Shown: positions 39,222 to 61,488 of the stretch, piece after piece
Layout of the letters: each line of letters starts with the position of its first letter
How positions within the stretch are numbered: the first letter of the stretch is position 1
Made by a program: the position numbers and the translations under genes
IMG/VR virus record: IMGVR_UViG_3300008116_000002
Reading direction: 5' to 3' (one strand)
From: a virus
Taxonomy: Duplodnaviria; Caudoviricetes
DNA length: 64,000 nucleotides
Notes under the pieces: generated by a model
What the model saw: only the letters and a program-made list of their open reading frames with translations
Told to the model about the DNA's origin: nothing
Database searches by the model: none

Positions 39222-39717
39222 AACAAATATAGCAAAAGGTGTCAATAGTAAGGATGAGAAGATAGGTGATTTGACTGTAGCATTTATTAATCAAAGCACT
39301 TCTGAATATCCCGTTACTGTTGGCACCGCAAAGTTTGAACCTGTTCCCGTAACTAAACAAAAAGATTTAATGTTGAATGTAGCTAGACTACATGCACAAC
39401 AAGAGTATGATAGAATAATGGAATTAGTTGCTGTGCTTCAAAAGCAAGCTAAGCAAATTATGAAGCGGCTGGAGTTTACAGATAAAGTCCATGCTGCAGA
39501 ATATAAGTTTCAAATTTATCATGGACAATGTTATTGGTTAGCCTTTGATCTTAATATTAAAAAATATATTTTACACCACTTAGGACCAAATGATTGGTCT
39601 ACTGGCACACCCGATAATTTACAATACGTTACTCGTGTCAAATGGTTAGGTGATCATACCTGGTTAGAAGTCGATGAACATGGAAATACAATAAATGAAA
39701 ATAGCGCTAGTTACTGA
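39211..39717 (+). CDS. DUF2452-like protein
   Basis: ARLHAQQEYDRIMELVAVLQKQA...AEYKFQIYHGQCYWL...LGPNDW; ATG at 39211 preferred to the track start at 39184. Confidence 0.55.
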   Translation: MKDKTNIAKGVNSKDEKIGDLTVAFINQSTSEYPVTVGTAKFEPVPVTKQKDLMLNVARLHAQQEYDRIMELVAVLQKQAKQIMKRLEFTDKVHAAEYKFQIYHGQCYWLAFDLNIKKYILHHLGPNDWSTGTPDNLQYVTRVKWLGDHTWLEVDEHGNTINENSASY

Positions 39718-40747
39718 TACACACTTTGGTGCAAGATCAGACTCCTTGGCATTTGATGCTTACTTCAAAAAGTTTTATCAAGAAGTATTTTTCCCAGAAT
39801 TAGATAAGAGAGGCATTGAAAAGATAATACATCTTGGAGATTGCTTTGATCGTCGCAAATATGTAAATTTTAATTCTTTGAAATCCTGCAGAGAGTATTT
39901 CTTCGATGAGGTAACTAAAAGAAATATTCAAATGGACATGATCGTAGGTAACCATGATACATTTTTTAAAAATACCAATGATGTAAATTCGCCTGATCTT
40001 TTACTAGGAGAATATAATAACATACTAGCATTTGATCGCCCGACGGAAGTAGATGGTATCGTTTACTTGCCTTGGTTGTGTGCAGATAATTATCATGAAG
40101 CAACTGATCTAATTAAGAAAACTAAATCAAAAGTTTGTTTCGGACATTTAGAAATTGCAGGTTTCGTAATGTTCAAAGGACAAAACACTCATGAATCGCA
40201 TGAAGGATTAGATCCCGGGATGTTTAAGAAATTTGATTTAGTATGCTCTGGTCATTACCACCACAAACATAGCAAAGGTAATATACATTATCTAGGTAAT
40301 CCCTATCAGATGTTTTGGAATGATCATGAAGATGATCGTGGATTCCATATATTTGATACTGAAACTTTAGAGTTAGAGTTTATTAAAAATCCTTTTTCTA
40401 TCTTTGAGAAATATTACTACGATGATGAGAAAGAGGATCCCGATTCTATAGATTCGGATGTGTTTGCTAAAAAATTAATTAAACTTATTGTTGTCAATAA
40501 AAAGGACTTCGTAAAATTTGATAGGTTTATAGAAAGAATATATTCAAAAGAACCTATTGAATTAAAAATTATTGAGGACTTTTCTGAATTCGAAGCCGAA
40601 GCACTAGACGAATCTATTGACTTAGAAGACACAATGACATTATTATCTAACTATGTAGATAGTGTAGAGACAGATGCCGATAGAGATAAAATAAAAGGTA
40701 TTCTGAGAACACTATACGTTGAAGCGCAGCACTATGAGGAAGCATGA
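39695..40747 (+). CDS. gp47: recombination nuclease subunit gp47 (Mre11/SbcD-like)
   Basis: TDTHFG, HLGDCFDRRK, IVGNHD, FGHLE, SGHYH, YLGNPYQ. Confidence 0.95.
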   Translation: MKIALVTDTHFGARSDSLAFDAYFKKFYQEVFFPELDKRGIEKIIHLGDCFDRRKYVNFNSLKSCREYFFDEVTKRNIQMDMIVGNHDTFFKNTNDVNSPDLLLGEYNNILAFDRPTEVDGIVYLPWLCADNYHEATDLIKKTKSKVCFGHLEIAGFVMFKGQNTHESHEGLDPGMFKKFDLVCSGHYHHKHSKGNIHYLGNPYQMFWNDHEDDRGFHIFDTETLELEFIKNPFSIFEKYYYDDEKEDPDSIDSDVFAKKLIKLIVVNKKDFVKFDRFIERIYSKEPIELKIIEDFSEFEAEALDESIDLEDTMTLLSNYVDSVETDADRDKIKGILRTLYVEAQHYEEA

Positions 40748-42462
40748 TAAAATTTAAAACTATTCGATGGAAAAACTTTTTATCTACTGGTTCACAATTC
40801 ACCGAAGTTAAATTAGATAGATCTACCACAACTCTTGTTGTGGGTGAAAACGGCGCAGGTAAAAGTACTATCCTAGATGCTCTGTGCTTTGTTCTTTTTA
40901 ACAAACCTTTTAGAAATATCAATAAGCCTCAGTTGATGAACAGCATCAACGGGAAGAATCTTCAAGTTGAGCTAGAGTTTAGTATTGGTCCAAAAGAATA
41001 TAAGGTAGTTCGAGGCATAAAGCCAGGTATCTTTGAAATTTATTCGCAGGGCGAATTGTTGAACCAAGATGCTGCAGCTAAAGATTACCAAAAGTATCTA
41101 GAAGATGGTATTCTAAAATTAAATTATAAATCATTTACTCAAATTGTTATACTTGGCAGCGCATCCTTTACTCCCTTTATGCAGTTACCACTAGGACATC
41201 GAAGAGAAATTATTGAGGATATTTTAGACATACAAATATTCACGGTAATGAACAGTGTTCTAAAAAATAAAATTGCAGATAATAAAGCCAAGATTACAGA
41301 CATAGAAACTAAAATAGAAATAGGCAAGAACAAGGTAAAGTTACAGCAAAGCTACATAAAAACACTTGAAGAAGATAAACAAAAGAAGGTAGAAGATGTA
41401 CGAAAACGAATATCTGAATCGACTGCGGAGATTACAAAACTCAATGGTGACGTTGCAATCGAGAAAGAAAAAGAGACTGGCCTTCAATCCTCTGTACTCG
41501 ATGCGAAGGAGAAGCGCAATAAGAGATCTGAAATGGAAGTTATCCTTAGAAAACTTACCGAAAAAATTAAGAATCAGGAAAAGAATATTGGGTTTTACGA
41601 GCAACATGATGTTTGCCCGACATGTAATCAAGGACTTGACGAACAACATAAACAAGAAGCGATCTCTACGCACACGCACAAGATTGAAGAAGTACAACTT
41701 GCCGTTGAATCTCTCTCCAAAGAACTTGAAGATATTGAAACTAGACTTGATGAGATTGCTGCAATCGAAGAAGAAATATCTCAATGTAAAGAAAATATCA
41801 TCGAGTATAACTCAAAGATAATTAGCGAACAAAACTATATAAAAAGACTGCAAGAGGAAATACAGGAAGAAACAGGTAACGTATCTAATATAGAAGATGA
41901 AAGAGCTACTTTAAAAACATTGGCGAAGGAAGTAGTAGTTTTATCTGAAGATAAAGGTAAGTTAGTTCAGGAAAAACATTACTATGATATTGCGAATATT
42001 CTGTTAAAAGATACAGGAATTAAAACAAAAATTATTCGACAGTATTTGCCCGTTATTAATAAACTGGTAAATAAGTATTTGACCGCAATGGATTTCTTTG
42101 TTCATTTTGAACTTGATGAAACATTCAACGAAACCATAAAGTCAAGACACAGAGATGATTTTTCCTACGCCTCATTTAGTGAGGGCGAAAAGCAAAGAAT
42201 AGATTTGGCATTGCTGTTCACTTGGAGAACTATTGCTAAAATGAAAAATTGCGCTAGCACAAATCTTTTATTGCTTGATGAGGTTTTTGATTCTTCTTTA
42301 GATGCAAACGGAACAGACTATGTAATGAACCTGATAAATACTTTAGGAGACGAGACTAATGTATTCGTCATTAGTCACAAAGGAGATCTTTTATTTGATA
42401 AATTCAGAAGTGTTATCAAATTTGAGAAACAACAAAATTTTTCTAGAATACAAGGAAATTAA
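40744..42462 (+). CDS. gp46: recombination ATPase subunit gp46 (Rad50/SbcC-like)
   Basis: GENGAGKST, zinc hook CPTC, FSEGEKQRIDLALL, LLDEVFDSSLD, ISHK. Confidence 0.96.
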   Translation: MIKFKTIRWKNFLSTGSQFTEVKLDRSTTTLVVGENGAGKSTILDALCFVLFNKPFRNINKPQLMNSINGKNLQVELEFSIGPKEYKVVRGIKPGIFEIYSQGELLNQDAAAKDYQKYLEDGILKLNYKSFTQIVILGSASFTPFMQLPLGHRREIIEDILDIQIFTVMNSVLKNKIADNKAKITDIETKIEIGKNKVKLQQSYIKTLEEDKQKKVEDVRKRISESTAEITKLNGDVAIEKEKETGLQSSVLDAKEKRNKRSEMEVILRKLTEKIKNQEKNIGFYEQHDVCPTCNQGLDEQHKQEAISTHTHKIEEVQLAVESLSKELEDIETRLDEIAAIEEEISQCKENIIEYNSKIISEQNYIKRLQEEIQEETGNVSNIEDERATLKTLAKEVVVLSEDKGKLVQEKHYYDIANILLKDTGIKTKIIRQYLPVINKLVNKYLTAMDFFVHFELDETFNETIKSRHRDDFSYASFSEGEKQRIDLALLFTWRTIAKMKNCASTNLLLLDEVFDSSLDANGTDYVMNLINTLGDETNVFVISHKGDLLFDKFRSVIKFEKQQNFSRIQGN

Positions 42463-43198: not shown

Positions 43199-43463
43199 AA
43201 TTCCTTTAGAGTATTTGGACTTAAATAATGATTTTGGCTTTACTGCGGTAAATGAAAATGAAGTGACCGAACCAATTCTAACAGAAGTCAAAACTTCTGT
43301 TGATTCGGAAACAAAACAAAAATTACAAACTCTTGAAAAATTAATTTTACCGCTTTTGGTAAACTTAATGAAGAATCCGGAAAAGGAATATATCCATTGG
43401 CCTAACAGGGTTCCGCTGATAGAGAAACAAATTGAAAAGATTTTGGCTATAACTAGGGCTTGA
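43188..43463 (+). CDS. conserved hypothetical T4-like protein
   Basis: 91 aa; DFGFTAV...LILPLLVNLMKNPEKEYIHWPNR. Confidence 0.6.
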   Translation: MPTKIPLEYLDLNNDFGFTAVNENEVTEPILTEVKTSVDSETKQKLQTLEKLILPLLVNLMKNPEKEYIHWPNRVPLIEKQIEKILAITRA

Positions 43464-43488
43464 CTTCTAACCTGTTAGGTGTTATAAT
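43460..43488 (+). promoter_or_regulatory. sigma70-type (early) promoter with extended -10
   Basis: TTGACT-17 nt-TATAAT with TGn before the -10. Confidence 0.8.
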
Positions 43489-43513: not shown

Positions 43514-45694
43514 ATGCAAGATTCCAAATCACTACTAGCAAAACTTCTAGCAACCGAAAATATTACTGTAGAACATAAAAAGGTTTCTACAGCATACTTC
43601 GATACCAAAAATAGAGTCATGGTTCTTCCCATGTGGAAGTTTATGTCTTCTAGTCTTTATGATTTACTTCTAGGTCACGAAGTAGGTCACGCTTTGAATA
43701 CTCCCCCTGATGGCTGGCACGATCAAGTTACGGATAAAATGAAGAAAGGTTTTAAGACTTTTCTAAATGTTATTGAGGATGTCCGTATTGAAAAGCTTAT
43801 TCAAAATAAATTCCCTGGTCTAAAGACTTCTTTCCGAAAGGGTTATTCCGAATTGGTGGCTATGGACTTCTTTGGAATATCCAAAATGGCAGTCGACATA
43901 GATGAGCTTCCTTTGATTGATCGTATTAATTTGCATTACAAAGTTGGATCATATCTGAATGTTCATTTTGAAGACTCGGAAAAATACTATATTGATCGTC
44001 TTGACAAACTGAAAACTTGGGAAGAAGTTGTTCAAATTGCAACTGAATTGTATGAATATTCCAAAGACGAATCTAAGATGCGCGATCTCTGTGAGTTAGA
44101 AGACTTCGACGATGAAAACGAAGACGACGATATGGATGACGCTGAATGGGAAGAATCGGATGACCAAGGTAGTAACAAAACCAAAAATGGGCGTCAGTCT
44201 GGAACAGGTGAAGAATTTGATCCGGAGTCTTTAACCGACAAATATTTTAGGGCAAGAGAAAAAGAACTTTTGGATGATAAGGTTAAACCGTATGTCTATG
44301 CAAACTGCCCTAAACCCGATCTAGATAAAATTATTATTCCGCATAAGAAAATTGCTGAGAACTATGATAACTTTACTTACAGAAGTCCTGTGTATGATAG
44401 TGATATCTGCAAGTTAATGGCGCCGAACATAATTGAATCAACTAAGGAAAAATTGTATCAGAAGTTTTTGAATACTAATAAAAAATATATTTCGTATTTG
44501 GTTAAAGAATTTGAATTGCGAAAAAATGCAAATCAATTTGCCAGAGCAGCAATTTCGAAAACAGGTAAATTAGATATGAAAAAGGTTCATCAATATAAAC
44601 TAAACGATGATCTTTTCAAACGTATGACGACTGTACCAAAAGGCAAGTCGCATGGATTACTTATGTTCGTAGATTATTCGGGTTCTATGTCTGAGAACAT
44701 TGGACCAACTATTGAGCAAAGTATTGTGCTGGCAATATTCTGCCGAAAGGTTAATATCCCTTTTAGAGTGTATGCTTTTACAGATTCTACAGCCGGCGAT
44801 TTTTATAAAGAACTCGGCATATCTAGAGACGTTCACGGAAGGTTCCCCGATTCTGAAAGAAAATTTTCTAGAAACAGAGATGATATTCATTTAGATGATA
44901 TGTTTTTTAGACTTCGAGAATATCTATCTAGCGATATGTCTGGTCGAGAATTTAAGAATGCTATTCGTTATTGGCTTCTTGCGGGAGCTGCTTTTGGTAA
45001 TCGAAACTGGAGCAGAAACATGCATACTGATCTTGATAAGGAAGATCAAACTAGATACATCTTTAATAACGATTTTGAAAATTTGAATGGTACTCCTTTG
45101 AATGAAGCAATTGTTTCTGCGATTGAGATAGCAAAACAGTTTAAAACCAGTTATAAACTAGACGTTGTCAACACTGTATTTTTGACAGATGGCGACTCCA
45201 ATGATACAGGAATGAAATATGACAGCGACGAGCGCACTTCTTATCTCGATAAGTATAACGGCGATTATACTCTCATTGTTCGGGATCCTGAAACTAAGCT
45301 TGAAGGCAAGAAAGCTCCTAGGGCAGAAACGACAGTAGCATTGCTTGACTTACTTAAGAAAGTGGCGGGTGTAAATGTTATTGGTTTTCATATTGCAAAT
45401 TATTTTAACCAAGGCGTGGTTTTGGATCGATTGAGAAAGTTTGGTAAATATGATACGGACTTTCATAAAAAGTATAAAGAGGCTCGCCGTAATAAGGTTT
45501 ACATAATCAACGATGCGGGGTTTGATGACTATTACATTATTCCTGGAGGAAAGAATCTACAGATCAAAGATGATGAAATGGATGTTGATGCCAATGCAAA
45601 GAAATCAGAACTTAAAAATGCTTTCTTGAAAATGCAAAGAGGCAAGTCAATAAATCGAGTTCTTTTGAGTAGATTTGCTGAAAAAATTGCTTGA
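43514..45694 (+). CDS. VWA (CobT-like) protein with an N-terminal HExxH metallopeptidase-like domain
   Basis: LLGHEVGH, FLNVIEDVRIE; acidic linker; MIDAS VDYSGS...NGTPLNEA...FLTDGDS. Confidence 0.8.
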   Translation: MQDSKSLLAKLLATENITVEHKKVSTAYFDTKNRVMVLPMWKFMSSSLYDLLLGHEVGHALNTPPDGWHDQVTDKMKKGFKTFLNVIEDVRIEKLIQNKFPGLKTSFRKGYSELVAMDFFGISKMAVDIDELPLIDRINLHYKVGSYLNVHFEDSEKYYIDRLDKLKTWEEVVQIATELYEYSKDESKMRDLCELEDFDDENEDDDMDDAEWEESDDQGSNKTKNGRQSGTGEEFDPESLTDKYFRAREKELLDDKVKPYVYANCPKPDLDKIIIPHKKIAENYDNFTYRSPVYDSDICKLMAPNIIESTKEKLYQKFLNTNKKYISYLVKEFELRKNANQFARAAISKTGKLDMKKVHQYKLNDDLFKRMTTVPKGKSHGLLMFVDYSGSMSENIGPTIEQSIVLAIFCRKVNIPFRVYAFTDSTAGDFYKELGISRDVHGRFPDSERKFSRNRDDIHLDDMFFRLREYLSSDMSGREFKNAIRYWLLAGAAFGNRNWSRNMHTDLDKEDQTRYIFNNDFENLNGTPLNEAIVSAIEIAKQFKTSYKLDVVNTVFLTDGDSNDTGMKYDSDERTSYLDKYNGDYTLIVRDPETKLEGKKAPRAETTVALLDLLKKVAGVNVIGFHIANYFNQGVVLDRLRKFGKYDTDFHKKYKEARRNKVYIINDAGFDDYYIIPGGKNLQIKDDEMDVDANAKKSELKNAFLKMQRGKSINRVLLSRFAEKIA

Positions 45695-45719
45695 TTGTTT
45701 TTTGAAAAGGTGTTATAAT
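45691..45719 (+). promoter_or_regulatory. sigma70-type (early) promoter with extended -10
   Basis: TTGATT-17 nt-TATAAT; shares AGGTGTTATAAT with the promoter at 43460. Confidence 0.75.
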
Positions 45720-45752: not shown

Positions 45753-46916
45753 ATGTCCAAGACGCATTATACTGAGCAACAACGTCAAGAATTGGTTAGC
45801 AAACTAATTGCTACTCATGGTAAAATTCTTGATAAAAAAGACATTCTAAATTTTTGTGAAAATAATAACCTGCCGAATCCGCATTTTTTGATTAGTCGTC
45901 GAGACATTAAGGTGGGGCGTTCATATGATTTGGGAAGATTTGATTCTTTTATTCCTGAAACTGCAGCTGCGTTGACAGCGCAAGTAGTTCCTCTGAAGCA
46001 ACCTAAAATGCATATGGTAGAAGATAGCACAGTTCCGGTCAAAGATTCTACTTATGTTCCTTTTGGTTTCTTTAAGCAACTCGAGCAAATTATCAGCTCA
46101 AAGACTTTCTATCCTGTTTTTATTACTGGTCTATCAGGCAACGGCAAGACTACTATGGTAGAACAGGTTGCTGCTAAGCTTAAACGAGAATGTATTCGAG
46201 TAAATATTAGTATTGAAACAGATGAAGACGATCTAATCGGCGGCAATACTCTGCAGGATGGTAATGTAATCTATCGTGAAGGCCCCGTTATTATGGCAAT
46301 GCGTCGGGGTGCAGTTTTGCTTATTGATGAAATTGATCGTGGTTCCAATAAGCTAATGTGTATGCAAAGTATTCTTGAGGGTAAGCCTTTGTTCAATAAA
46401 AAGACAGGCGAAGTAATTTATCCTGCTCCCGGATTTACTGTTATTGCAACTGCGAACACCAAAGGTCGGGGCACAGAAGATGGTCGATTTATTGCAGCAC
46501 AGATTCTAGATGAGGCTTTTCTAGAAAGATTCCCTATCACTGTTGAACAAGAGTATCCTTCGACTACTGTTGAGAAAAAAATTCTTCGTAACAAGATGAA
46601 TTTTTATGGTAAGCTAGATGAAGAGTTTCTTGAGATGTTAGTCAATTGGGCGGATATTATTCGTAAGACTTTCCAAGAAGGTGGTGTGGATGAGATTATT
46701 AGTACTCGTCGATTGGTAAATATTGCACAGGCGTATTCGATTTTTAATAATCGAGAAGATGCAATTAAGTATTGTATTAATCGATTTGACGATGATACCA
46801 AAACAGCATTTATGGATTTGTATGAAAAGATGTCCACTCCTGTAGAAGCAACCAGTGCTTTGCCGGAACAGGACGTAGCACAAGTAACAAATTTTGATGA
46901 TGATATTCCATTTTAA
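45753..46916 (+). CDS. MoxR/CobS-type AAA+ ATPase
   Basis: ITGLSGNGKT, LLIDEIDRG, ATANTKGRG, LDEAFLERF, ISTRRLV; ends NFDDDIPF. Confidence 0.9.
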   Translation: MSKTHYTEQQRQELVSKLIATHGKILDKKDILNFCENNNLPNPHFLISRRDIKVGRSYDLGRFDSFIPETAAALTAQVVPLKQPKMHMVEDSTVPVKDSTYVPFGFFKQLEQIISSKTFYPVFITGLSGNGKTTMVEQVAAKLKRECIRVNISIETDEDDLIGGNTLQDGNVIYREGPVIMAMRRGAVLLIDEIDRGSNKLMCMQSILEGKPLFNKKTGEVIYPAPGFTVIATANTKGRGTEDGRFIAAQILDEAFLERFPITVEQEYPSTTVEKKILRNKMNFYGKLDEEFLEMLVNWADIIRKTFQEGGVDEIISTRRLVNIAQAYSIFNNREDAIKYCINRFDDDTKTAFMDLYEKMSTPVEATSALPEQDVAQVTNFDDDIPF

Positions 46917-46931
46917 ATTTAATTAAAAATA

Positions 46932-46955
46932 AACGGCGCACTTCAGTGCGCTGTT
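46932..46955. terminator. 10-bp hairpin after the ATPase gene (possible terminator or processing stem)
   Basis: AACGGCGCAC-TTCA-GTGCGCTGTT; no T run on the + strand, A run upstream. Confidence 0.4.
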
Positions 46956-46964
46956 CCTACGTAT

Positions 46965-47795
46965 ATGCACACTGATGAAATTACATATGACGCCTTTATT
47001 CGAAGATGGTTCGGTAGGCTAGGTAACAATATACAGCAATTATCTAATGGCATTTACTTTTGTAAAAAAGAAAATGCTCACTTCACTTCCCCAGAACATC
47101 CTATGATCAATGCGATTGATCTATGTTTTGGTACAACAAAATATACTATTCCGGAAACTTCTCATAATTGGTTATTTTTCTTTAACGGACCAGAAGCAGA
47201 TTTTGTTTTTGATGTGGATGATTTAAATAAAAACAGAAAGAAAATTTGCGAGGATTTTATACTACCAAACTTAAAGGTAGATCAAACTAAAATAAAAGAA
47301 CCTTTACCTGACGATCACTTAATTATACACTTAAGAAGCGGTGATCTTTTTACTCATTGGCCAAGTACTCACCCTCAAAATCCTTTGGTTTATTACATGA
47401 GTTTACTTAACTTATTTGAATTCAATGCTACTGTCGTTTCCGAGGATGAGAGGCATCCTTTTATAGAAGTGTTCAAAAAATTAAGAGTGCCTGTAGAAGT
47501 ATTATCTGTGGAGGATACATATGCTAAGTTGTTGAGAGCTGTAAGTTTAGCTACCTCAGGTATAGGTAGTTTTCCTGTATCCGCTGCCCTTTGTTCTAAA
47601 AATATAAAAAGATTTTATTGTACAAATTTACATCAAGAATATAGTTTAAATCATTTTATGTTAAAAGAACATCTTGAAGTTTATGTAATGGATCTAGGTG
47701 ATAAATATATAAAAGTAGGTGAATGGAAATACTCCCCTGAAACCTTTGAGAAGTTTTATAATTATAACGAACATACATTATTTAGGAGACTATAA
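46965..47795 (+). CDS. GT11-like (alpha-1,2-fucosyltransferase-like) protein
   Basis: [11 protein letters not shown] and IIHLRSGD resemble the GT11 GGLGNQ and HVRRGD motifs. Confidence 0.55.
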
Positions 47796-47796
47796 T

Positions 47797-48810
47797 ATGG
47801 ACAAAAGAGTTGCCTTAATTACAGGCATTACCGGGCAAGACGGTTCTTATCTTGCAGAACTTCTTTTGGAAAAAGGTTATGAGGTACATGGCGTTATTCG
47901 TCGTAGTTCCTCAATCAATACTTCCCGCATAGATCATATCTATAGTAATTCAAATCTACATTTACACTATGGCGATGTAACTGATTCATTGTCCATAATG
48001 AATATTCTCAAAAAATATAATCCAACTGAAATTTATAATTTGGCAGCACAAAGTCATGTTAAGGTTTCTTTTGAAACTCCTGAATATACAGCAATGGTAG
48101 ATGGTCTTGGAACTTTAAAAATTCTTGAAGCTGTTAGAATTTTAAATATGGAAAAGACAACTAAAATTTACCAAGCATCGACTTCAGAATTATATGGTTT
48201 GGTGCAAGAAATTCCTCAGAAAGAAACTACTCCTTTTTATCCTAGATCTCCATATGGTGTAGCAAAGTTATATGCATATTGGATCGTAAAGAACTATCGT
48301 GAATCGTATAATATGTTTGCTTGTTCTGGTATTCTTTTCAACCATGAATCACCAAGACGAGGTTTTAATTTTGTAACTAAAAAGGTAGTTGATGGATTGG
48401 CGAATATCGGAGCAGGATTTCAAGATTGTTTGTACATGGGAAATCTAAATGCGAAAAGAGATTGGGGACATGCAAAAGACTATGTCAAGGCTATGTGGCT
48501 TATTCTACAACAGGACACTCCTGAAGATTTTGTCATAGCTACCGGCGAACAATATTCGGTTAAAGAATTTATTGAAAGATGTGCTCCCTATTATGGTATG
48601 AAGATCCGCTGGGAAGGCGAAGGACTTGACGAAGTCGGCATTAATGATTATACCGGCAAAGTAATTATTCGTGTTGACCCTAAGTATTTTAGACCGGCAG
48701 AAGTGGAAACTCTTCTCGGAGATGCCACAAAGGCAAAGAGTGTTCTAGGATGGACACCTGAATATTCTTTTGACGATCTAGTCAAAGAAATGTGTACACA
48801 ATTTAATTGA
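47797..48810 (+). CDS. gmd: GDP-mannose 4,6-dehydratase
   Basis: [60 protein letters not shown]; real ATG at 47797 after an AGGAG SD. Confidence 0.97.
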
Positions 48811-48817
48811 GGACAAT

Positions 48818-49444
48818 ATGTATCCTGAGTCATATCAAGAGGTAAATAGAAAAGTAACTGAAAGATACTTAAACTACAATAATGGTTTTTTTATTGAGGT
48901 TGGCGGTGCAGATGGCGTTACTCAAAGTAATACCCTACACCTAGAAAGGTATAAAAATTGGACGGGGGTTTTAGTTGAGCCAAATATTGAGGCGGCAAAA
49001 AAATGCCAAATGAACAGACCCAACTCTAAAGTCTTTAATTATGCTTTAGTTGCAGATGATTATCAAGACGAAGAATTAACCATGTTACATCGAGCTTGGT
49101 ATAATGGCGATCCTGGTCTAACTTCCTCCGCCCATAATTCTAGTATAAACGATATACCTGAATGGAATGGCTTTAATTACAAGTTTAATATACCTGCAAC
49201 AACTTTAACTAATGTGTTAGAAAACTTGAACATGGAAAATCAAACAATAGATTTTCTATCATTGGATGCGGAAGGATATGAATTAGAAATCTTAAAAGGG
49301 TTAGATATGAAAAGATTCTGTCCAAAAATTATTTTAATAGAATGGCATCTTGATCTGCAGGATGTTTTTAACGTGTTAGATTCTACACATAAACTGGAAG
49401 AACAGTTATCTAAACATGATTATGTTTTTATTCTAAAGGATTAA
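48818..49444 (+). CDS. FkbM-family methyltransferase
   Basis: FFIEVGGADG...SNT...GVLVEP...IDFLSLDAEGYELEILKG. Confidence 0.88.
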   Translation: MYPESYQEVNRKVTERYLNYNNGFFIEVGGADGVTQSNTLHLERYKNWTGVLVEPNIEAAKKCQMNRPNSKVFNYALVADDYQDEELTMLHRAWYNGDPGLTSSAHNSSINDIPEWNGFNYKFNIPATTLTNVLENLNMENQTIDFLSLDAEGYELEILKGLDMKRFCPKIILIEWHLDLQDVFNVLDSTHKLEEQLSKHDYVFILKD

Positions 49445-49446
49445 CT

Positions 49447-50412
49447 ATGGAAATGTATAAAAGTAGTAAAATATTTGTTGCGGGGCATAATGGATTGGTT
49501 GGTTCCGCAATTGTAAGAAAGTTACAAAACGAAGGATATACTAACTTAGTATTGAGGACTAAGGCTGAACTTGATCTTAGAAATCAAGATGCAGTTAAAG
49601 ACTTTTTTAAAATAGAAAAGCCTGAATTTGTATTTCTTGCTGCAGCAAAAGTCGGAGGTATTAATTATAACGCAGAATACCCTGCCGATTTTATCTATGA
49701 CAATTTGATGATACAAACAAATGTTATAGACACTGCATATAGAAACGGTGTAAAAAAATTATTGTTTCTGGGATCGGCTTGTATATACCCGAAAGTTACT
49801 CCTCAGCCAATTAAAGAAGAATATCTATTGACTGCTCCGTTGGAGCCGACAAATGAAGGATATGCTTTGGCAAAAATTACTGGTTTGAGAATGTGCGAAT
49901 ATTATAGAAAACAGTATGGGTTTAATGCAATTAGTTTAATGCCAGCAAATCTATATGGCACTAACGACAATTTTGATCCTGAAAAATGTCACGTTATTCC
50001 TGGGATGATTACTAAATTTAATGCAGCTAAAAAGAATAATACTGATGTAACATTCTGGGGTGACGGTACACCTACTAGAGAATTTTTGTTCGTAGATGAT
50101 TTAGCAGATGCTTGCTTATTTTTAATGCATAATTATAATGAAAGCGAATTTATTAATGTAGGTTCTGATGTAGAAATTGAGATTAAGGAACTATGTGAAA
50201 TTATAAGAAAAGAAATTGGGTTCGAAGGAAACATCATTTGGGATGAATCTAAACCAAACGGAACTCCTAGAAGAAAAATGGACAATACTAGATTGTTTAA
50301 TATGGGATGGAGACCGAAGATAGATTTTAATACCGGACTGGCACAAACAATTAATTGGTTTCTTACAGAAAAAGATCGTATAAAAACTCTTATGTCTAGG
50401 ATCCCAGGATGA
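49447..50412 (+). CDS. fcl: GDP-L-fucose synthase (WcaG; possibly acting as ColC)
   Basis: IFVAGHNGLVGSAI, AAAKVGGI, FLGSACIYPK, YALAK, PANLYG, HVIPG, PTREFLFVDDLA. Confidence 0.95.
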   Translation: MEMYKSSKIFVAGHNGLVGSAIVRKLQNEGYTNLVLRTKAELDLRNQDAVKDFFKIEKPEFVFLAAAKVGGINYNAEYPADFIYDNLMIQTNVIDTAYRNGVKKLLFLGSACIYPKVTPQPIKEEYLLTAPLEPTNEGYALAKITGLRMCEYYRKQYGFNAISLMPANLYGTNDNFDPEKCHVIPGMITKFNAAKKNNTDVTFWGDGTPTREFLFVDDLADACLFLMHNYNESEFINVGSDVEIEIKELCEIIRKEIGFEGNIIWDESKPNGTPRRKMDNTRLFNMGWRPKIDFNTGLAQTINWFLTEKDRIKTLMSRIPG

Positions 50413-51578
50413 AATGGCCTTTAATGGGTGAGACTATCACTTTGGGTGATAGATTAAAAATGGCACACTTTGCTTTGACCGCTCCTAAGTTTACCAACGG
50501 AGAAAAAGTAAAGAAGTTTGAAAAAGAATGGAACGAGTGGTTGGGATCTAAACATTCTTTGTATGTGTCTTCCGGAAGCACTGCAAACTTTTTATTGGTT
50601 GCTGCAGTAAAAGAATTATACGGTCTTAAGAATGGGGACAAAGTTCTTTTACCTGCATGCACATGGATGACAAATGTTGCACCTATCATGCAACTAGGCC
50701 TTGAACCAGTATTTTGCGATATTAATCTAGATAATTTTAGTTTCGATGTTGTGGACGTGGTAAAGCTATCGAAGAAGCATGATATTAAGATGATCTTCGT
50801 AACTCATCTGTTAGGTTTTTCTGCAAATAATGAAGCTTTAAGAACAATTTTTCCGAGAGCTATTATTATAGATGACATATGCGAATCACATGGATGTAAA
50901 GATGTATATGGTAAAAAGCATGGTTCGAATAGTTTAGGTGCAACATTTAGTTTCTATTTTGGTCACCATATGTCTACAATTGAAGGTGGAATGATTTCTA
51001 CTAACAATACTGATCTATATGATCTAATGAAACTAAAGAGAAGTCATGGTATGGCTAGAGAATCTCTTCGTTTCGACGAATATGCGAAAGCGTATCCAAA
51101 TATAGATAAGCAGTTTTTGTTCGTCACTGATGGATATAACTTTAGAAATCATGAAATATGTGCAGTGCTTGGTTCTTCCCAGCTAAAGCGGTTGGACAAA
51201 ATGATTAGTATTCGTAATAGAAATCACACTTTATTCACTAAAATTATTGACAAATATTCTAATCTCTTTTATAATATTAAAGATCATCCTAGCAATAGTA
51301 GTTTTTGTTTGCCCTTCATATGTAGGTCAAATGAGATTATGCTTGCAATGAAAGAGAAGTTTATTAAGTATGGTATTGAATATAGACCAGTTGTTTCAGG
51401 TAATCTTTTAGAGCAACCGTTCTTGGCTAATTATGTAATCGATACTGATAAACAAAGAACAAATGCAGACATTGTACATACGCAAGGTGTTTATGTAGGC
51501 AATAACCACTTTGTTACCGAAGAAGATATGAAATTTTTAGAAAAGGTCGTAGGAGAGATAAATGAATCGTTTAGGTGA
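50409..51578 (+). CDS. colD: DegT/DnrJ-family PLP enzyme, ColD-like GDP-4-keto-6-deoxymannose 3-dehydratase
   Basis: SSGSTAN, DDICESHG, FSFYFGHHMSTIEGGM with His at the usual Schiff-base Lys position; directly follows gmd/fcl. Confidence 0.7.
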   Translation: MKWPLMGETITLGDRLKMAHFALTAPKFTNGEKVKKFEKEWNEWLGSKHSLYVSSGSTANFLLVAAVKELYGLKNGDKVLLPACTWMTNVAPIMQLGLEPVFCDINLDNFSFDVVDVVKLSKKHDIKMIFVTHLLGFSANNEALRTIFPRAIIIDDICESHGCKDVYGKKHGSNSLGATFSFYFGHHMSTIEGGMISTNNTDLYDLMKLKRSHGMARESLRFDEYAKAYPNIDKQFLFVTDGYNFRNHEICAVLGSSQLKRLDKMISIRNRNHTLFTKIIDKYSNLFYNIKDHPSNSSFCLPFICRSNEIMLAMKEKFIKYGIEYRPVVSGNLLEQPFLANYVIDTDKQRTNADIVHTQGVYVGNNHFVTEEDMKFLEKVVGEINESFR

Positions 51579-51912
51579 ACTAATAGAACAAATTATTCAT
51601 GATACGGTAAATCGTGTATTAGAAGATGACCAGATGCCAGATTCTGAATATATTACAACAGATAATCTAGGTGAAATAATTGAGAAGCTAGCTATTATTC
51701 ATATTCGTATGTGGATGTTGGAAGATGCTATGCAGGCAGCGAAATCTGATGAGGAACTTGCCGATCTCAAAAGAAAGGTTGATATTTGTTTTAAGGTTAA
51801 GCGGCCTAAATATGTTCAAGCAATTAATCTTCTAGTAGATGATGCTATTAGAACAGGAAAGTCTTTGAGAGAAGATTCTGTAAAATTATATAAAGGCGTA
51901 GAGCATGGCTAA
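51562..51912 (+). CDS. hypothetical helical protein (DUF4254-like)
   Basis: LGEIIEKLAIIHIRMWMLED...KRKVDICF. Confidence 0.45.
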   Translation: MNRLGELIEQIIHDTVNRVLEDDQMPDSEYITTDNLGEIIEKLAIIHIRMWMLEDAMQAAKSDEELADLKRKVDICFKVKRPKYVQAINLLVDDAIRTGKSLREDSVKLYKGVEHG

Positions 51913-52903
51913 AATAATATTCTTTAATCACTATCATCGAGGCGATCTTTTAACTAGTAGAGAATTTGTTAGACAAATAACTAAAGAATTGCAGGATGTA
52001 GAATTTGCGTATATGCATTTTAATCATCCAAAATTAACTAGAGATTTAGATATTCCGAAAATAGGAGACCCCTCTTCTTTGGATCCAAAAACTCCTTTTT
52101 ATCAGGATGGGGATGACCTATATGTTAATACATGGATAGGTTGTTTCTGGGATATCTTTTGTCAGCATGGCGGCATTAATATGTTTTCTCTTTGGCATCA
52201 ATGGGAAAAAGTTTATGAAACAATTAATGCGGTGTTTGGTAGTAATTTGAAATTAAATTCGGAAAAAGAATATTATCTTCCAAGTATAGATTATTCCAGG
52301 TATAATTTAAAAAATGTAAATGCCTATTTAGAACAATCCAAAGATAGAAAAAAGATTCTATTATGTAATGGTGTTCCTAAATCTGGACAATCTTTCGCAG
52401 ACAATATGTCTAGTTTTATACATGAAACTGCAAAAAAATATTCTAATATAGATTTTATTTGTACGGAAAAATTTGAAAAAGTTTTAGATAATATTCTGTT
52501 TACAGATGATATTATCGGAGACAACGAGATTGAAGATAATAGAGCACCCTGGGAAGATAGACAAACTAATCTGTGTGATCTGTATGAGATTTCTTATCTA
52601 AGTACAAAATGCGAAGCTATTGTTGGTAAAAACTCTGGTCCTTTTGTATTTTGTGAAACTAAAGAAAATTATATGGATCCTGAGAAAAAATTCTTATCCT
52701 ATAATGTTAGTTGGGGTCCTGCATTTCATACTGAAAAGAAAAGTCCTACGGAAACTATGTCACATGGGCTAAAGTATAACTGCGATTATATGATACTTGC
52801 TATCGAAGGTCCTTACTTAGAAATAGGTAATTTGAATAATCTTACGGATGACGATAAAATTAATATACAAGTTTCATTAAATGAATTAGCACAGAGTCTA
52901 TGA
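51905..52903 (+). CDS. hypothetical, probable GT-B-like sugar transferase
   Basis: Context in the glycan island; HRGDLL N-terminus, VGKNSGPF C-terminal motif resembling GT9-type enzymes. Confidence 0.4.
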   Translation: MAKIIFFNHYHRGDLLTSREFVRQITKELQDVEFAYMHFNHPKLTRDLDIPKIGDPSSLDPKTPFYQDGDDLYVNTWIGCFWDIFCQHGGINMFSLWHQWEKVYETINAVFGSNLKLNSEKEYYLPSIDYSRYNLKNVNAYLEQSKDRKKILLCNGVPKSGQSFADNMSSFIHETAKKYSNIDFICTEKFEKVLDNILFTDDIIGDNEIEDNRAPWEDRQTNLCDLYEISYLSTKCEAIVGKNSGPFVFCETKENYMDPEKKFLSYNVSWGPAFHTEKKSPTETMSHGLKYNCDYMILAIEGPYLEIGNLNNLTDDDKINIQVSLNELAQSL

Positions 52904-53775
52904 AAAAAATAAAATTAGGATTTACTGATACTCACGAACACATTGCACAATTCTTTTCGAGTCTATTAGCTAATAGATTTGATGTAGAAATCGACAACGA
53001 GAATCCTGACTATCTAATTTTTGGTGATGAAAATTTTGGTAATCAAAATTTAAATTTTAATAAAAAAGATGTAGTTAAAATTTTCTATACAGGAGAGAAT
53101 CGTAGACCAGAAAATTATGATTGCCATTATGCAATATCTTTCGATCATAATTTTAATTCTTGGCATTATAGATTACCATTATTTGTAGTCTATATGTGGT
53201 CGTTAGATCAGATTCATAAGACTCCTTTTCAGTATTATCATATCCTTGGTAATTTCCCTGCAATGGAAAAGACTAGATTTGCTTCTTTTGTGGTTGGGAA
53301 TCCTGGGTGCAAAGAAAGAAACGAATTCTTTGAAAAGCTAAATGCAATTAAAAAGGTAGATAGCGGAGGCAAACTTTTTAATAACATTAACGCTTCATTA
53401 GATGGTGAAGAAGCAAAAATTAATTTCCTTGCAGAAAGAAAATTTAATATTTGCTTTGAGTCTATGTCCTATCCCGGATATGTAACTGAAAAGATTCTTC
53501 ATGCTTTTTATGCTAAGACTATTCCTATCTATTGGGGATCGACTACTGTAGAAAGTGATTTTAATTCTAGAGCATTTGTTAATGTACATGATTTTAGTTC
53601 TTTTGAAGAGGCAATCGATCATGTTATGATGCTAGACTCCAATGAAGATCTATACCAAAGAATGATTGCCGAGCCTGCTTTTGCATCTAATATACCCAGG
53701 GACTACGTAATTTTAAATAACTTTTTAAATTGGTTTGAATCTATTGTTTATAATAGAATTGATGCGAGAGAATAA
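52900..53775 (+). CDS. GT10 alpha-1,3/4-fucosyltransferase-like
   Basis: YTGENRRP, FASFVVGNP...RNEFF...KVDSGG..FNN, KFNICFES...GYVTEKI...TIPIYWG. Confidence 0.88.
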   Translation: MKKIKLGFTDTHEHIAQFFSSLLANRFDVEIDNENPDYLIFGDENFGNQNLNFNKKDVVKIFYTGENRRPENYDCHYAISFDHNFNSWHYRLPLFVVYMWSLDQIHKTPFQYYHILGNFPAMEKTRFASFVVGNPGCKERNEFFEKLNAIKKVDSGGKLFNNINASLDGEEAKINFLAERKFNICFESMSYPGYVTEKILHAFYAKTIPIYWGSTTVESDFNSRAFVNVHDFSSFEEAIDHVMMLDSNEDLYQRMIAEPAFASNIPRDYVILNNFLNWFESIVYNRIDARE

Positions 53776-54497
53776 TGAATATACAAACTTTTATTTTCAA
53801 TTGGCGTGGTCAATATGAAAAAACTATTGAAAAAGAAACACAACTAAAAGCCTTAGGAAAATCTCCTATCGTAATTAACAGCGACGATGCTTATAATAAT
53901 GTTGCAGGTTGGCATCACATTGGCGACGATTGTTACTTTGGTGAACAGTTTGCGAAGGCGGTGGAACTATTTACCGGAGATGTATTGTTCCATGTACAGG
54001 CAGATGCATCATATGATAATTGGGAACAGTTGTATGAGGATGCCGAAAAACATTTTGAGAAAACTGATTGGGGTATCTATGCGCCGAATGTAGATTATAC
54101 TTGGTATGATTCTTCGAGAACCGATATTACAAGTTTAGAGTTTCCCATACCCGGTTTAAAAATTGTAGCAAATACAGATTGTACTTGTTGGTTTATTCAC
54201 AAAGATATTATTGACTTATATAAGAAGCGTAATTTAAAATTAGAACAATATAAGATGGGATGGTCCTGGGATATAGTATTACCCGCTATTTGCTATATCA
54301 ATCAAAGACCAGTAATACGCGATTATAACCACACAGTAAAGCATCCGCAGGGAACTAATTATAACACGCAGCAAGCAGAAAAAGAAATGTGGGACTTATT
54401 TCAGTCTTTGCCGAAAGATTTACAAGAAGCCTTTAGTTATATCAAAGGCGACAGACAACAGTTAGCTAAATATTATGCAGAAGATTATATCATTTAG
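53775..54497 (+). CDS. hypothetical glycosyltransferase-like protein
   Basis: Context; HVQADA, GIYAP, DCTCWFI, GWSWD are GT-A-like elements. Confidence 0.4.
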   Translation: MNIQTFIFNWRGQYEKTIEKETQLKALGKSPIVINSDDAYNNVAGWHHIGDDCYFGEQFAKAVELFTGDVLFHVQADASYDNWEQLYEDAEKHFEKTDWGIYAPNVDYTWYDSSRTDITSLEFPIPGLKIVANTDCTCWFIHKDIIDLYKKRNLKLEQYKMGWSWDIVLPAICYINQRPVIRDYNHTVKHPQGTNYNTQQAEKEMWDLFQSLPKDLQEAFSYIKGDRQQLAKYYAEDYII

Positions 54498-55113
54498 CCT
54501 TTGGGGCGATTCCGCTAAGTATGGCGTAGGTGCTATACGAAACGCACAATTAGCACAAAAATATTTTCCTGATTGGAAGTGTGTTTTTTACTATGATTCC
54601 TCAGTGCCCGGAATTTATATTAGTGCCTTAAATGGTTTTAACAACGTTGAAACTATACAAATAACAGATGGGACATATGGGGCCTTTTGGAGATTATTTC
54701 AAATACAAAAAAATAGTATAACTTTAATTCGAGATACTGATTCTCGTTTATCTGAGAGAGAAAAAAATATTGTTAATGATTGGTTATCCACAAATAGAAA
54801 AGTTTGTATAATTCGAGATCATATACGGCATTACGATTTTCCTATTCTAACAGGTATGTTTGGAATTAAAGGTGAACTACCAGAACAAGCATATGAAGAT
54901 ATGAAAAAACACTGGAAAAATTTTAGTTACGCCTCAGAACAAATTTGGTTGGGGAATACTATATTTAGATTGCTTCCTGAGGAGTGCGAAGTTTATGGAA
55001 TTAAAGAAAAACTTTGGATGAGGGAAACATATTCTGCGCTAGGAAAAGATTTTATTGGACAAGCATATGATGAAAATGATAATGGTATCTATGAGGGGCA
55101 GTTAAATGACTAA
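54475..55113 (+). CDS. hypothetical glycosyltransferase-like protein
   Basis: KIISFSLWGDSAKY..GAIRN, IRDTDSRLSERE, ILTGMFG; glycan-island context. Confidence 0.5.
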   Translation: MQKIISFSLWGDSAKYGVGAIRNAQLAQKYFPDWKCVFYYDSSVPGIYISALNGFNNVETIQITDGTYGAFWRLFQIQKNSITLIRDTDSRLSEREKNIVNDWLSTNRKVCIIRDHIRHYDFPILTGMFGIKGELPEQAYEDMKKHWKNFSYASEQIWLGNTIFRLLPEECEVYGIKEKLWMRETYSALGKDFIGQAYDENDNGIYEGQLND

Positions 55114-55837
55114 ACGTGTCACTATAATTACTCCGACTACAGGAACTAAATATCTAGACGAATGTTTACTTTCAGTAAAAAATCAAACTTATACTAATCT
55201 ACAACACTTTATAGTTATAGATGGTCCTGATTATAATGAAAAAGCATTAAAAATTATATCCCCCTATAAAGATAAAACTATTCTAACACTTCCGGAAAAT
55301 ACGGGGGCAGGTGGCTACAATGGTCATCGAATATATGGTAGTATTCCATACATTCTAAATACTGATTATGTGATGTTTTTAGATGAAGATAATTGGTTAG
55401 AACCCAATCACGTAGAAAGCCTTGTTAATGTGATAGAACAAGGCAATGACTGGGCTTTTTCTTTAAGAAACATTTATGACAGCAATAGTAATTTTATTTG
55501 CACTGACGATTGCGAAAATCTCGGACTCTGGCCTACGTGCATATCTGAGCAAGAGCTCTTCGTCGACGTCGGAGCATACTTCCTCCCGACCTCAATAGCA
55601 ATTCAAATCTCTCCTCTATGGTATAGACGAGCGAGACACCCCGAAGAGCAGCCCGAAGTCGATAGAATTATAATGCAGGTTCTATTGCAATATGGATTTA
55701 AATATGATACCAATGGAAAGTATACTTTAAACTACAGAGTTGGAAATAGAACTGATTCTGTACAAAAGGATTTCTTTCTTTGGGGAAATGAAAAAATGAA
55801 ACAGAAATACAACGGAGAATATCCTTGGAGAAAATAA
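55106..55837 (+). CDS. GT2-family glycosyltransferase
   Basis: VTIITPT...SVKNQTY...VIDG...VMFLDEDNW (DxD). Confidence 0.85.
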   Translation: MTKRVTIITPTTGTKYLDECLLSVKNQTYTNLQHFIVIDGPDYNEKALKIISPYKDKTILTLPENTGAGGYNGHRIYGSIPYILNTDYVMFLDEDNWLEPNHVESLVNVIEQGNDWAFSLRNIYDSNSNFICTDDCENLGLWPTCISEQELFVDVGAYFLPTSIAIQISPLWYRRARHPEEQPEVDRIIMQVLLQYGFKYDTNGKYTLNYRVGNRTDSVQKDFFLWGNEKMKQKYNGEYPWRK

Positions 55838-55844
55838 AATAATT

Positions 55845-56513
55845 ATGAAAAAACCAGTTGTAATTTATTCCAGCGACGATAATCCAGATTATGTAGAGTT
55901 TGAACCAATCGTTAAAGAGTTTTGGGAAACTCTTGGGTTTGAACCGTATTATGCTAAAATTGGAAGTGAGGAATATCCTTTAATAGAAGGGGTCGAATCT
56001 TCATTGCAATCTCAGATTGTACGATTGTATGCGCCGAGACTATTTCCTAACAGAATAGTCTTGACGACAGATATAGACATGTTGCCCTTTGATAAAAATT
56101 ATTTTTTAGAAAAACTACCTCAAGCAAAAAATCAAATATCTATATTTTGCGCAGATAGCTACGAAGGCAAACGATATCCGATGTGTTATTTGGCAGCATA
56201 TGGTAAAACTTTTGAATCTATAGCTTTAGAAAAAAATGAAACGTGGGAACAATTTGTTATAAGATTACATAGTTTAAATTTAGGATGGAATACTGACGAA
56301 TTATACATGACAGAAAGAATCAATAATTCTTCTTTTAAAAAAATAAAATATTCTAGAGGTTGGTTACCAAACGGTGTAGCGAAAAATAGATTATGTAGAG
56401 TATTTTGGTATTGGGATGAATCTGAGAAATATTATGATGCACATTGCCCTAGGCCTTATTCCGCACATAAAGAACAAATTGATAGTTTACGATATTTTCT
56501 AACAACAGAATAA
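55845..56513 (+). CDS. hypothetical GT-A-like protein
   Basis: LTTDIDMLP (DxD), YPMCY, WNTDE; glycan-island context. Confidence 0.45.
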   Translation: MKKPVVIYSSDDNPDYVEFEPIVKEFWETLGFEPYYAKIGSEEYPLIEGVESSLQSQIVRLYAPRLFPNRIVLTTDIDMLPFDKNYFLEKLPQAKNQISIFCADSYEGKRYPMCYLAAYGKTFESIALEKNETWEQFVIRLHSLNLGWNTDELYMTERINNSSFKKIKYSRGWLPNGVAKNRLCRVFWYWDESEKYYDAHCPRPYSAHKEQIDSLRYFLTTE

Positions 56514-56515
56514 AT

Positions 56516-58096: not shown

Positions 58097-58099
58097 ATT

Positions 58100-58915
58100 A
58101 TGAATGACTTCTTAAGCCATGTTCATTTTGCAAATTTAGCTGACTATGTTTTTGCAAGAAATATTTTTCCTGATACTCCCGGGGAAGGAATAATCACTGT
58201 AGGATTAAATACTAGTTTTAATATAAAGAGTGGGGATATTGTTTATTCCAAGTATGAATTTTTAGGCCCGTTACTAGAAATTTTATCTAGACAAAATTCT
58301 TTAACTGATCTAAAACTAATAAGTCATGAGAGCGATAGGGGAGTCACAAAAGAATTATTTGATCTTAAACCTACGTGTATAACTAAGTGGTATGCGCAAA
58401 ATGTAGAATATGAGCATAGGGATTTAATACCAATTCCTTTAGGATTATCTGCTAGTTATTATAGTAAAACCCATATGGTTTCTCCCCCCGAAAAAAAGTT
58501 TGACGGACCTAAAGAAACACTTCTTTATATAAACCATAGAATAGAAACTCATCCTACTTCTAGACAATGGATTTACGATCACTTTAAAAACGTAGATTGG
58601 TGTACTGTAGACTTACCAAATTTAAAAAAAGAAGAATATCTTAAAAGATTAGAAACTCATAAGTTTATTTTATGTCCAAGGGGAAATGGTGTCGATACTT
58701 GTAGATTGTGGGAATCTTTATATTATGGTATGATACCGATTGTTGAAGATCATTTAACATACAAAACTTTGGATGATTTGCCCGCAATAAGAGTCAAAAG
58801 TTTTAAGGACGTGAATAAAGATTTTCTTTTGAAAAAGGAAGAGGAATTTAAAAACAGAAAATTTAATTTGGATAAATTAAAGGCCTCGTGGTGGATAAAT
58901 TTAATTAGAAAGTAG
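58100..58915 (+). CDS. exostosin/GT47-like glycosyltransferase
   Basis: HKFILCPRGNGVDTCRLWESLYYGMIPIV. Confidence 0.75.
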   Translation: MNDFLSHVHFANLADYVFARNIFPDTPGEGIITVGLNTSFNIKSGDIVYSKYEFLGPLLEILSRQNSLTDLKLISHESDRGVTKELFDLKPTCITKWYAQNVEYEHRDLIPIPLGLSASYYSKTHMVSPPEKKFDGPKETLLYINHRIETHPTSRQWIYDHFKNVDWCTVDLPNLKKEEYLKRLETHKFILCPRGNGVDTCRLWESLYYGMIPIVEDHLTYKTLDDLPAIRVKSFKDVNKDFLLKKEEEFKNRKFNLDKLKASWWINLIRK

Positions 58916-58923
58916 AAAATGAA

Positions 58924-59580: not shown

Positions 59581-59581
59581 T

Positions 59582-61462: not shown

Positions 61463-61488
61463 TAGTTATATAATATTATGGAGTTGTC

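Follow-up and report, generated by a model that had tools for sequence, protein, structure and literature searches.

A CobS-type MoxR ATPase of a phage carries an SSB-like C-terminal tip, a probable docking peptide

Introduction

Marine T4-like cyanophages share 25 core genes, among them cobS, whose link to cobalamin has been speculative since 2005 (PMC1079782, PMC3037559). Genes related to cobS are also abundant in uncultured aquatic phages. In this study, we analysed such a gene in a 64-kb stretch of DNA from a virus of the Caudoviricetes (IMG/VR record IMGVR_UViG_3300008116_000002; 64,000 nucleotides, referred to as the window in the following). The encoded ATPase ends in NFDDDIPF, which is identical in seven of eight residues, the upstream Phe included, to the C-terminal tip DFDDDIPF of E. 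coli SSB (SSB-Ct). The SSB C-terminal octapeptide is highly conserved in all eubacteria; its I-P-F end is needed for function, and the Asp side chains and the upstream Phe raise affinity (PMC10143822). A report of an SSB-like tail on a CobS or MoxR ATPase was not found in the literature that we searched. The locus raises the question whether the tip of this motor protein is a docking peptide of the SSB type, and at which proteins it might be aimed.

Results

Identity and domain organization of the ATPase

The gene and its parts are as follows.

45753–46916, plus strand: phage CobS-type MoxR AAA+ ATPase of 387 aa (P0001), assigned by Pfam, PHROG, a solved CobS and fold
45774–45950, plus strand: small N-terminal domain, residues 8–66, with viral relatives only (AF2 model, pLDDT about 80–84)
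46035–46835, plus strand: AAA+ core and helical lid, residues 95–361 (AF2 helices; alignment to CobS 35–312)
46836–46889, plus strand: variable disordered linker, residues 362–379 (pLDDT, column entropy)
46890–46916, plus strand: SSB-Ct-like tip NFDDDIPF and stop (codons AAT TTT GAT GAT GAT ATT CCA TTT TAA)

An initial annotation of this DNA, made from the letters alone, had described a MoxR ATPase that ends in an SSB mimic. The label MoxR proved to be correct. P0001 matches AAA_5 (4e-18) and the CbbQ_C lid (9e-7) in Pfam, and PHROG 249 at 2e-115, a family labelled 'porphyrin biosynthesis' that carries the CobS annotation in cyanophages. The solved cobaltochelatase CobS (PDB 9ujv) aligns with P0001 over CobS residues 35–312 (E 4.8e-26). 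An AlphaFold2 (AF2) model of P0001 reached a mean pLDDT of 84.5, and its best Foldseek matches were CbbQ and NorQ (E 1e-19, TM 0.84–0.88 by target). The family alignment of 146 relatives shows no variation at the Walker A (G129/G131/K132), Walker B, sensor and arginine positions, among them E193, N235, R259 and R319. P0001 thus combines an AAA_5-type core, a CbbQ_C helical lid and an adjacent partner with a MIDAS vWA domain, as expected for a MoxR-type AAA+ ATPase.

A stretch that is disordered in the AF2 model (residues 65–89) connects the small N-terminal domain with the ATPase core. An Atlas structure search with this domain retrieved viral clusters only, for the most part CobS-like ATPases, and no known fold or family besides these viral look-alikes. 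Pfam gave no SSB or OB-fold match for P0001, and the fold is that of an AAA+ protein. P0001 lacks the OB-fold of PF00436 and is thus not a member of the bacterial SSB family; its likeness to SSB is confined to the tip.

The tip and its disordered linker

NFDDDIPF lies where the initial annotation had placed it, and the codons and the preceding residues (...KMSTPVEATSALPEQDVAQVT) agree as well. The flexible linker that it had described was also confirmed by AF2: the final helix stops at residue 361, the last 26 residues are disordered, and the mean pLDDT of 10-residue blocks is 47–55 over residues 361–387. The tail has low confidence throughout, and back-docking of the tail on the ATPase was not seen in this model. 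At the extreme C-terminus, an acidic run is followed by [I/L/V]-P-F-COOH on a disordered, poorly conserved linker, which is what characterizes an SSB-Ct-type motif. The resemblance to the SSB tail noted in the initial annotation is therefore real, and it concerns a selected C-terminal motif on the disordered linker of a ring ATPase.

Evidence for this selection comes from a set of 121 close homologues, composed of the query and its 120 closest database relatives (70–98% identity). An acidic-[I/V]-P-F end, with one or two acidic residues before I/V-P-F, is present in 116 of the 121. Counted from the C-terminus, column entropy is 0 bits for F and P and 0.7–1.1 bits for I/V, E/D, D/E and D, against 2.4–3.4 bits in the linker upstream of these last six positions, and the length of the linker also varies among homologues. 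The resulting conservation ranking (F = P > I/V > acidic) fits the residues known to matter in SSB-Ct (PMC10143822). In related IMG/VR loci the Pro of the tip is encoded by CCA, CCT or CCG and the Phe by TTT or TTC; since both codons vary synonymously, it is the peptide that is under selection rather than the DNA. We also collected all stop-to-stop ORFs of at least 60 aa from the window, 24 IMG/VR relatives and a few isolate and gp32 loci. Only 13 of these 1404 ORFs end in PF, and every one is a CobS orthologue. The CobS tail is more than a product of chance.

Some relatives carry 60–150 additional residues, Pro/Ala-rich in part, ahead of the acidic-[I/V]PF tip. Such long extensions were considered as OB-fold or SSB domains, i.e., as CobS-SSB fusions, and this idea was rejected: none of ten extensions had a Pfam match, and those read were mostly of low complexity. 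The Pro/Ala-rich extensions recall the linker of SSB.

Distribution of the tip in the family

A broader family set of 150 diverse members was obtained from a search of 1.84 billion cluster representatives. A terminal F is present in 52 of them (35%), a terminal PF in 30 (20%) and a terminal [ILVM]PF in 11, and all three frequencies far exceed the expectation from amino acid frequencies. Many members have xPF or F alone at the end, with few acidic residues. Averaged over the 150 representatives, the last 20 residues have a charge of −2; acidic disordered tails are near-general and are also found without PF.

In a family tree computed without the tail, the protein of the window falls into a well-supported clade in which 54 of 56 rows have an [I/V]PF tip. 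Ends of this type also occur outside the clade; supported branches demand at least five changes, and xPF and plain aromatic ends are scattered over the tree. Seven homologues from cultured phages, namely the six cyanophages S-PM2, S-CAM7, P-SSM2, S-SSM4, S-H38 and S-SCSM2R and the Pelagibacter phage Mosig, have acidic tails and no PF, and no entry of the cultured-phage collection gave an alignment that reached the terminal F. One subclade of about 74% identity has lost the tip and ends in ...SSPQI; PF in another reading frame was not found in this subclade. The tip is thus a feature of the clade and not of the family as a whole, a lineage-specific and strongly selected add-on to an acidic disordered tail. 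Because it is absent from the examined cyanophage and pelagiphage homologues and was lost in one subclade, it is dispensable for the core job of the family. Conservation across phage homologues, which the initial annotation had named as a check of its idea, accordingly holds within the clade and for a fifth of the family representatives, and breaks down in the cultured phages and in the tip-less subclade.

One explanation for this pattern, that cyanophage CobS has no tip because the SSB of cyanobacteria has none, was rejected, since All4779, an SSB of cyanobacteria, carries an acidic tail of nearly the same sequence (PMC3976300). For the same reason, and because the SSB tip is common to all eubacteria (PMC10143822), the proteobacterial host at which the initial annotation had hinted is unsupported.

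A conserved partner gene within the replication-recombination block

The following features surround the gene.

39695–42462, plus strand: recombination nuclease genes gp47 (SbcD-like) and gp46 (SbcC-like), upstream (PHROG 100, 1e-103; PHROG 77, 2e-182)
43460–43488, plus strand: putative sigma-70-like promoter before the partner gene, TTGACT-17-TATAAT, TG-extended (11/12, consensus match only)
43514–45694, plus strand: CobT-like partner of 726 aa (P0002) with HExxH N-domain, acidic linker and vWA domain with MIDAS (PHROG 459 'peptidase', 3e-190)
45691–45719, plus strand: putative sigma-70-like promoter before CobS, TTGATT-17-TATAAT, TG-extended (10/12, consensus match only)
60806–62430, plus strand: gp45 sliding clamp and gp44 clamp loader, downstream (PHROG 223, 3e-64; PHROG 168, 4e-118)

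A CobT-like protein is encoded immediately upstream of CobS in all 19 related loci that have enough upstream sequence, and is thus an obligate partner. Its HExxH residues (H55, E56, H59) and the MIDAS residues of its vWA domain (D387, S389, S391, T527 and D559; D-x-S-x-S...T...D) are invariant in the partner alignment, and the linker between HExxH and vWA is variable and very acidic. Judged from its sequence, P0002 has the architecture of bacterial CobT.

In bacterial CobST, the M48-like N-domain of CobT binds the last lid helices of CobS, and a finger of the vWA domain enters the CobS ring (bioRxiv 10.64898/2026.07.21.739949, 10.64898/2026.10.09.757910); alpha10 of the CobS small domain touches the M48C domain of CobT (bioRxiv 10.64898/2026.07.21.739949). 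The final helix of the P0001 model, residues 347–361, is the counterpart of the lid helix to which the CobT N-domain binds, and the phage tail starts directly after it. A complex prediction with alignments for the tail (residues 355–387) and the full partner gave a score of 0.00, which weighs neither way on binding. Partner columns showed no co-variation with the presence of PF in eight tip-bearing versus four tip-less loci, a small sample and therefore a weak test.

In the window, gp47 and gp46 are followed by a 2OG-Fe(II) oxygenase gene, the partner gene and CobS, and then, after about 14 kb occupied by other ORFs, by gp45 and gp44; the order in S-PM2 is gp47-gp46-peptidase-CobS-gp45-gp44. 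The CobS/partner pair is thus located inside a replication-recombination gene block.

Comparison with other phage tails

In two related contigs, gp32 (the phage SSB) ends in ...YFEKLAED and ...YFSKLAEEE, unlike the CobS tip. The polymerase of two relatives ends in ...RSLFD and ...SLKGFFT, whereas the CobS proteins of the same contigs end in NEEIPF and RDEVPF. Two DNA-modification proteins of the window have clamp-type ends (...SLESLFV and ...SLEELFA). The clamp-type tails of the lineage thus read S-L-x-x-[L/F]-F plus 0–1 residue and contain no Pro. With its invariant Pro, its acidic residues and no Ser-Leu, the CobS tip does not look like a gp45 clamp tail of the T4 type.

To see the tip in a wider context, IMG/VR was scanned for DNA that encodes DDDIPF followed by a stop, which gave at least 118 loci. 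Among the matches listed were 111 ORFs of at least 60 aa. According to Pfam, these 111 include 33 SSB, three SSB_1 and two DUF669 proteins, together with four SF2 helicases, one DnaB_C protein, one ERF annealing protein, one TIR-domain protein and two Pam3 gp34-like proteins; about 60 had no match. Prophage DUF669 proteins were described to mimic the DDDIPF tip, and a route to host proteins was proposed for them (PMC13687109). Together, the IMG/VR carriers and the DUF669 report make the borrowing of the SSB tip by proteins of mobile elements a real phenomenon, and the range of carriers suggests that it is widespread in phages.

Discussion

The tip of the phage CobS protein is very probably a functional docking peptide of some kind. 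By analogy with SSB-Ct, we favour the reading that it plugs into the SSB-recognition pockets of genome-maintenance proteins such as ExoI, chi, RecQ, PriA and RecO, tethering the ATPase to them or competing for them, and we put this somewhat below even odds (about 45%). The predicted succession of a folded domain, a disordered linker and an acidic tip is the layout of an SSB tail and speaks for this reading. So do the match with the E. coli tip, the pattern of selection, the contrast with the gp32 and clamp-type tails, the confinement of PF ends to CobS among neighbouring ORFs, the gene context and the portability of the tip in phages. Against it stand the absence of the tip from the cultured phages examined and its loss in one subclade; in addition, the xPF and F ends with few acidic residues in other family members might reflect a partner specific to the family that prefers an aromatic residue at the C-terminus, and not SSB mimicry. 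Sequestration of SSB partners and an anti-defence role, as suggested in the initial annotation, are hypotheses.

In this reading, the gene encodes the ring-forming MoxR ATPase of a phage CobS/CobT-like motor-adaptor pair, and within the clade each subunit ends in a disordered linker of about 18–25 residues followed by [D/E][D/E][D/E]-[I/V]-P-F-COOH. As in SSB-Ct, the terminal Phe and its carboxylate would enter a basic-rimmed hydrophobic pocket, with the acidic residues placed along a basic ridge. The presumed targets are host enzymes that recognise SSB and serve in replication, restart, recombination or repair; phage enzymes of this kind may be among them. A hexameric ring is expected from the analogy to CobS and NorQ, and six tips per ring might provide an avidity comparable to that of the four tips of the SSB tetramer. 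Probably, the ATPase/vWA remodeller would either be recruited in this way to SSB-partner proteins at sites of replication or repair, or compete for them with host SSB; the captured proteins would then be substrates of the ATPase and its vWA/MIDAS partner. One might even imagine that the pair, long classed as a vitamin B12 'auxiliary metabolic gene', remodels and perhaps proteolyses members of the SSB interactome, in that the six tips find host restart and repair enzymes and the partner strips, inactivates or cuts them, and that the SSB tip is more broadly a portable address label that directs many non-SSB phage proteins, such as helicases, annealing proteins and a TIR protein, to the host fork. 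We regard this extended scenario as unlikely.

Instead of addressing SSB partners, the tip might dock on a protein of the phage itself, so that its likeness to SSB-Ct would be convergent. Candidates are the CobT-like partner, which offers two carboxylate-liking sites (the HExxH cleft and the MIDAS), and gp46/47, the polymerase or the helicase loader. The position of the tail right after the CobT-binding lid helix means that the tip can reach the partner, and the invariance of the HExxH and MIDAS residues and the family-wide scatter of F and PF ends without strong acidity would fit such a target. It is also equally precedented, because the acidic, Phe-ending tail of T7 gp2.5 contacts the polymerase of its own phage (references in PMC12339929). 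However, cultured cyanophages keep the same partner without PF, which argues that the tip is an add-on aimed elsewhere than at partner pairing. Moreover, no partner column tracks the tip in the 12 paired loci, weak as this test is, and since the gp32 tail is different, SSB-Ct pockets are not expected in phage proteins. Overall, a target within the phage appears rather unlikely. A role of the acidic tail in self-regulation would be a further alternative: it might fold onto a basic surface of the ring or pore or mimic nucleic acid and thereby control the activity or assembly of the ATPase, much like the SSB tip acting on the DNA-binding fold of SSB itself. In favour of this, a disordered tail of net acidic charge is found in nearly all members of the family, with or without PF. 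Charge alone, however, leaves the invariant terminal Pro-Phe unexplained, and with the tail not docked back in the AF2 model we consider self-regulation improbable.

In T4-like phages, proteins usually address the clamp through a hydrophobic or aromatic C-terminal tail. As a gp45 sliding-clamp tail, comparable to those of T4-family polymerases and late-transcription factors, the tip would place the motor on clamp-loaded DNA. Clamp-type tails do occur on other proteins of the window, and CobS adjoins gp45/gp44 in relatives such as S-PM2, but the differences in sequence between the clamp tails of this lineage and the CobS tip described above make this very improbable. Finally, the protein could be a true cobaltochelatase CobS that boosts cobalamin synthesis of the host, with the tail helping it to join host CobN or CobT. 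This has in its favour the sequence kinship with the solved CobS and the historical annotation, which its own authors called speculative (PMC1079782, PMC3037559). The solved bacterial CobS (328 aa), however, has 16 residues past the aligned core as compared with 28 in P0001, the 64-kb window contains no CobN-sized ORF (the largest has 884 aa), and the gene is placed among replication genes. A role in cobalamin synthesis is hence hardly credible.

The tip gains weight from its carrier: cobS belongs to the core genes of T4-like cyanophages, and its role in cobalamin synthesis was always speculative. An SSB-type address peptide, together with the fixed place between recombination nuclease and clamp genes, could shift cobS from 'metabolism' to 'DNA transactions or host takeover'. 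SSB-tip mimicry by prophage DUF669 proteins was already known; new is a MoxR-vWA motor that bears an SSB-type address peptide, and with it an AAA+ motor joins the small list of non-SSB carriers of the SSB tip.

Like SSB-Ct, the CobS tip stands at the extreme C-terminus, consists of an acidic run and I/V-P-F-COOH, follows a disordered linker and is displayed by a homo-oligomer; unlike in SSB, its carrier is an AAA+ ring ATPase and has no OB-fold, and the linker is shorter (about 18–25 residues). The phage pair resembles CobS-CobT of the aerobic cobaltochelatase, in which a MoxR ATPase is likewise combined with a protein made of an M48-like N-domain, a disordered acidic linker and a vWA-MIDAS domain. 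An additional viral domain at the N-terminus and a long tipped tail set the phage ATPase apart from bacterial CobS, and in contrast to cobaltochelatase the pair is found in a context of DNA replication and recombination, with no CobN seen in the window. A ring ATPase with a target-gripping MIDAS adaptor is also common to CbbQ-CbbO (the Rubisco activase), NorQ-NorD, RavA-ViaA and Rea1/Midasin, of which CbbQ and NorQ are the closest folds to phage CobS. To our knowledge, none of these four systems carries an SSB-like C-terminal address peptide. The hexameric helicase-primase gp4 of T7 also has an acidic, Phe-terminated tail. The tails of T7 gp2.5 and gp4 share with CobS an acidic disordered docking tail with an essential terminal Phe, and gp4 is a hexameric NTPase as well; the T7 tails, by contrast, contact basic patches on the polymerase of T7 itself, lack an I-P-F tip and belong to carriers unrelated to MoxR. 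In the prophage DUF669 proteins with their DDDIPF end, too, a protein of a mobile element copies the host SSB tip, presumably to reach SSB partners; the DUF669 carriers are proteins of the ssDNA-binding type, whereas the carrier of the CobS tip is an ATPase motor.

Phage proteins with a DDDIPF end

Exact DDDIPF-stop ends, such as the one that closes the MoxR-type ATPase CobS, are common on non-SSB phage ORFs among the IMG/VR matches listed. The scan for this exact end returned at least 118 loci (L037-L154) and, at a length of 60 aa and above, at least 111 ORFs, and a Pfam SSB domain was detected in only 33 of the 111 DDDIPF-ending ORFs of that length among the matches listed. Other Pfam assignments among these matches included:

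SF2 helicases: four (e.g. L075, L122, L114)
ERF annealing protein: one (L055)
CAP12/Pycsar-type TIR protein: one (L065)
DnaB_C match: one
Pam3 gp34-like proteins: two

For about 60 of the 111 ORFs the Pfam search gave no match, and within this Pfam-less group a 73-aa family recurs among the matches listed (L061, L072, L110, L045).

Within the window, only one ORF besides CobS has an acidic C-terminus whose last residue is F, a tail sheath stabiliser homologue; three further ORFs carry tails of another kind:

11729-12475, tail sheath stabiliser homologue (PHROG 227), acidic, Phe-terminated end ...DDYSYLEVFEDF
29524-30150, ORF ending ...SMDFLDE
33442-34806, ORF ending ...SLESLFV, adjoining the next
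34803-36092, ORF ending ...SLEELFA

The last three ends belong to the clamp-binding type of tail known from T4-like phages, and polymerases of related loci (L031, L033) end similarly (...RSLFD, ...SLKGFFT).

CobS, its partner and the downstream region

In several contigs of the tip-less subclade, CobS relatives at about 74% identity, an exact 84-bp tandem duplication was found (L005, L007, L009, L015, L020; about 7000-7155). It doubles the last lid helix and the linker, the DDTKSAFMDLYQKM... stretch being present twice before the ...SSPQI end; L008, of the same subclade, has one copy of the unit. At the other end of the protein, the N-terminal domain (residues 8-66, window 45774-45950) is missing from solved bacterial CobS; its look-alikes in the ESM Atlas were viral only, including free-standing proteins of 65-170 aa. 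In the CobT-like partner encoded directly upstream (window 43514-45694), HExxH and E88/D89 are invariant across 13 diverged phages, so this 'peptidase' domain may be competent for catalysis and not just serve for docking.

Downstream of CobS lies:

46936-46951, GC-rich hairpin GCGCAC-TTCA-GTGCGC, 20 nt past the stop

The terminator scan scored this hairpin for the minus strand only, where a T-run follows. By eye, several of the ORFs beyond it (46965-60526) appear to encode nucleotide-sugar enzymes; 47719-48810 and 49447-50412, for instance, resemble the GDP-mannose dehydratase and GDP-fucose synthase types. Together the + strand ORFs of this region form an insertion of about 14 kb between CobS and the gp45 sliding clamp, whereas in cyanophage S-PM2 CobS adjoins gp45.
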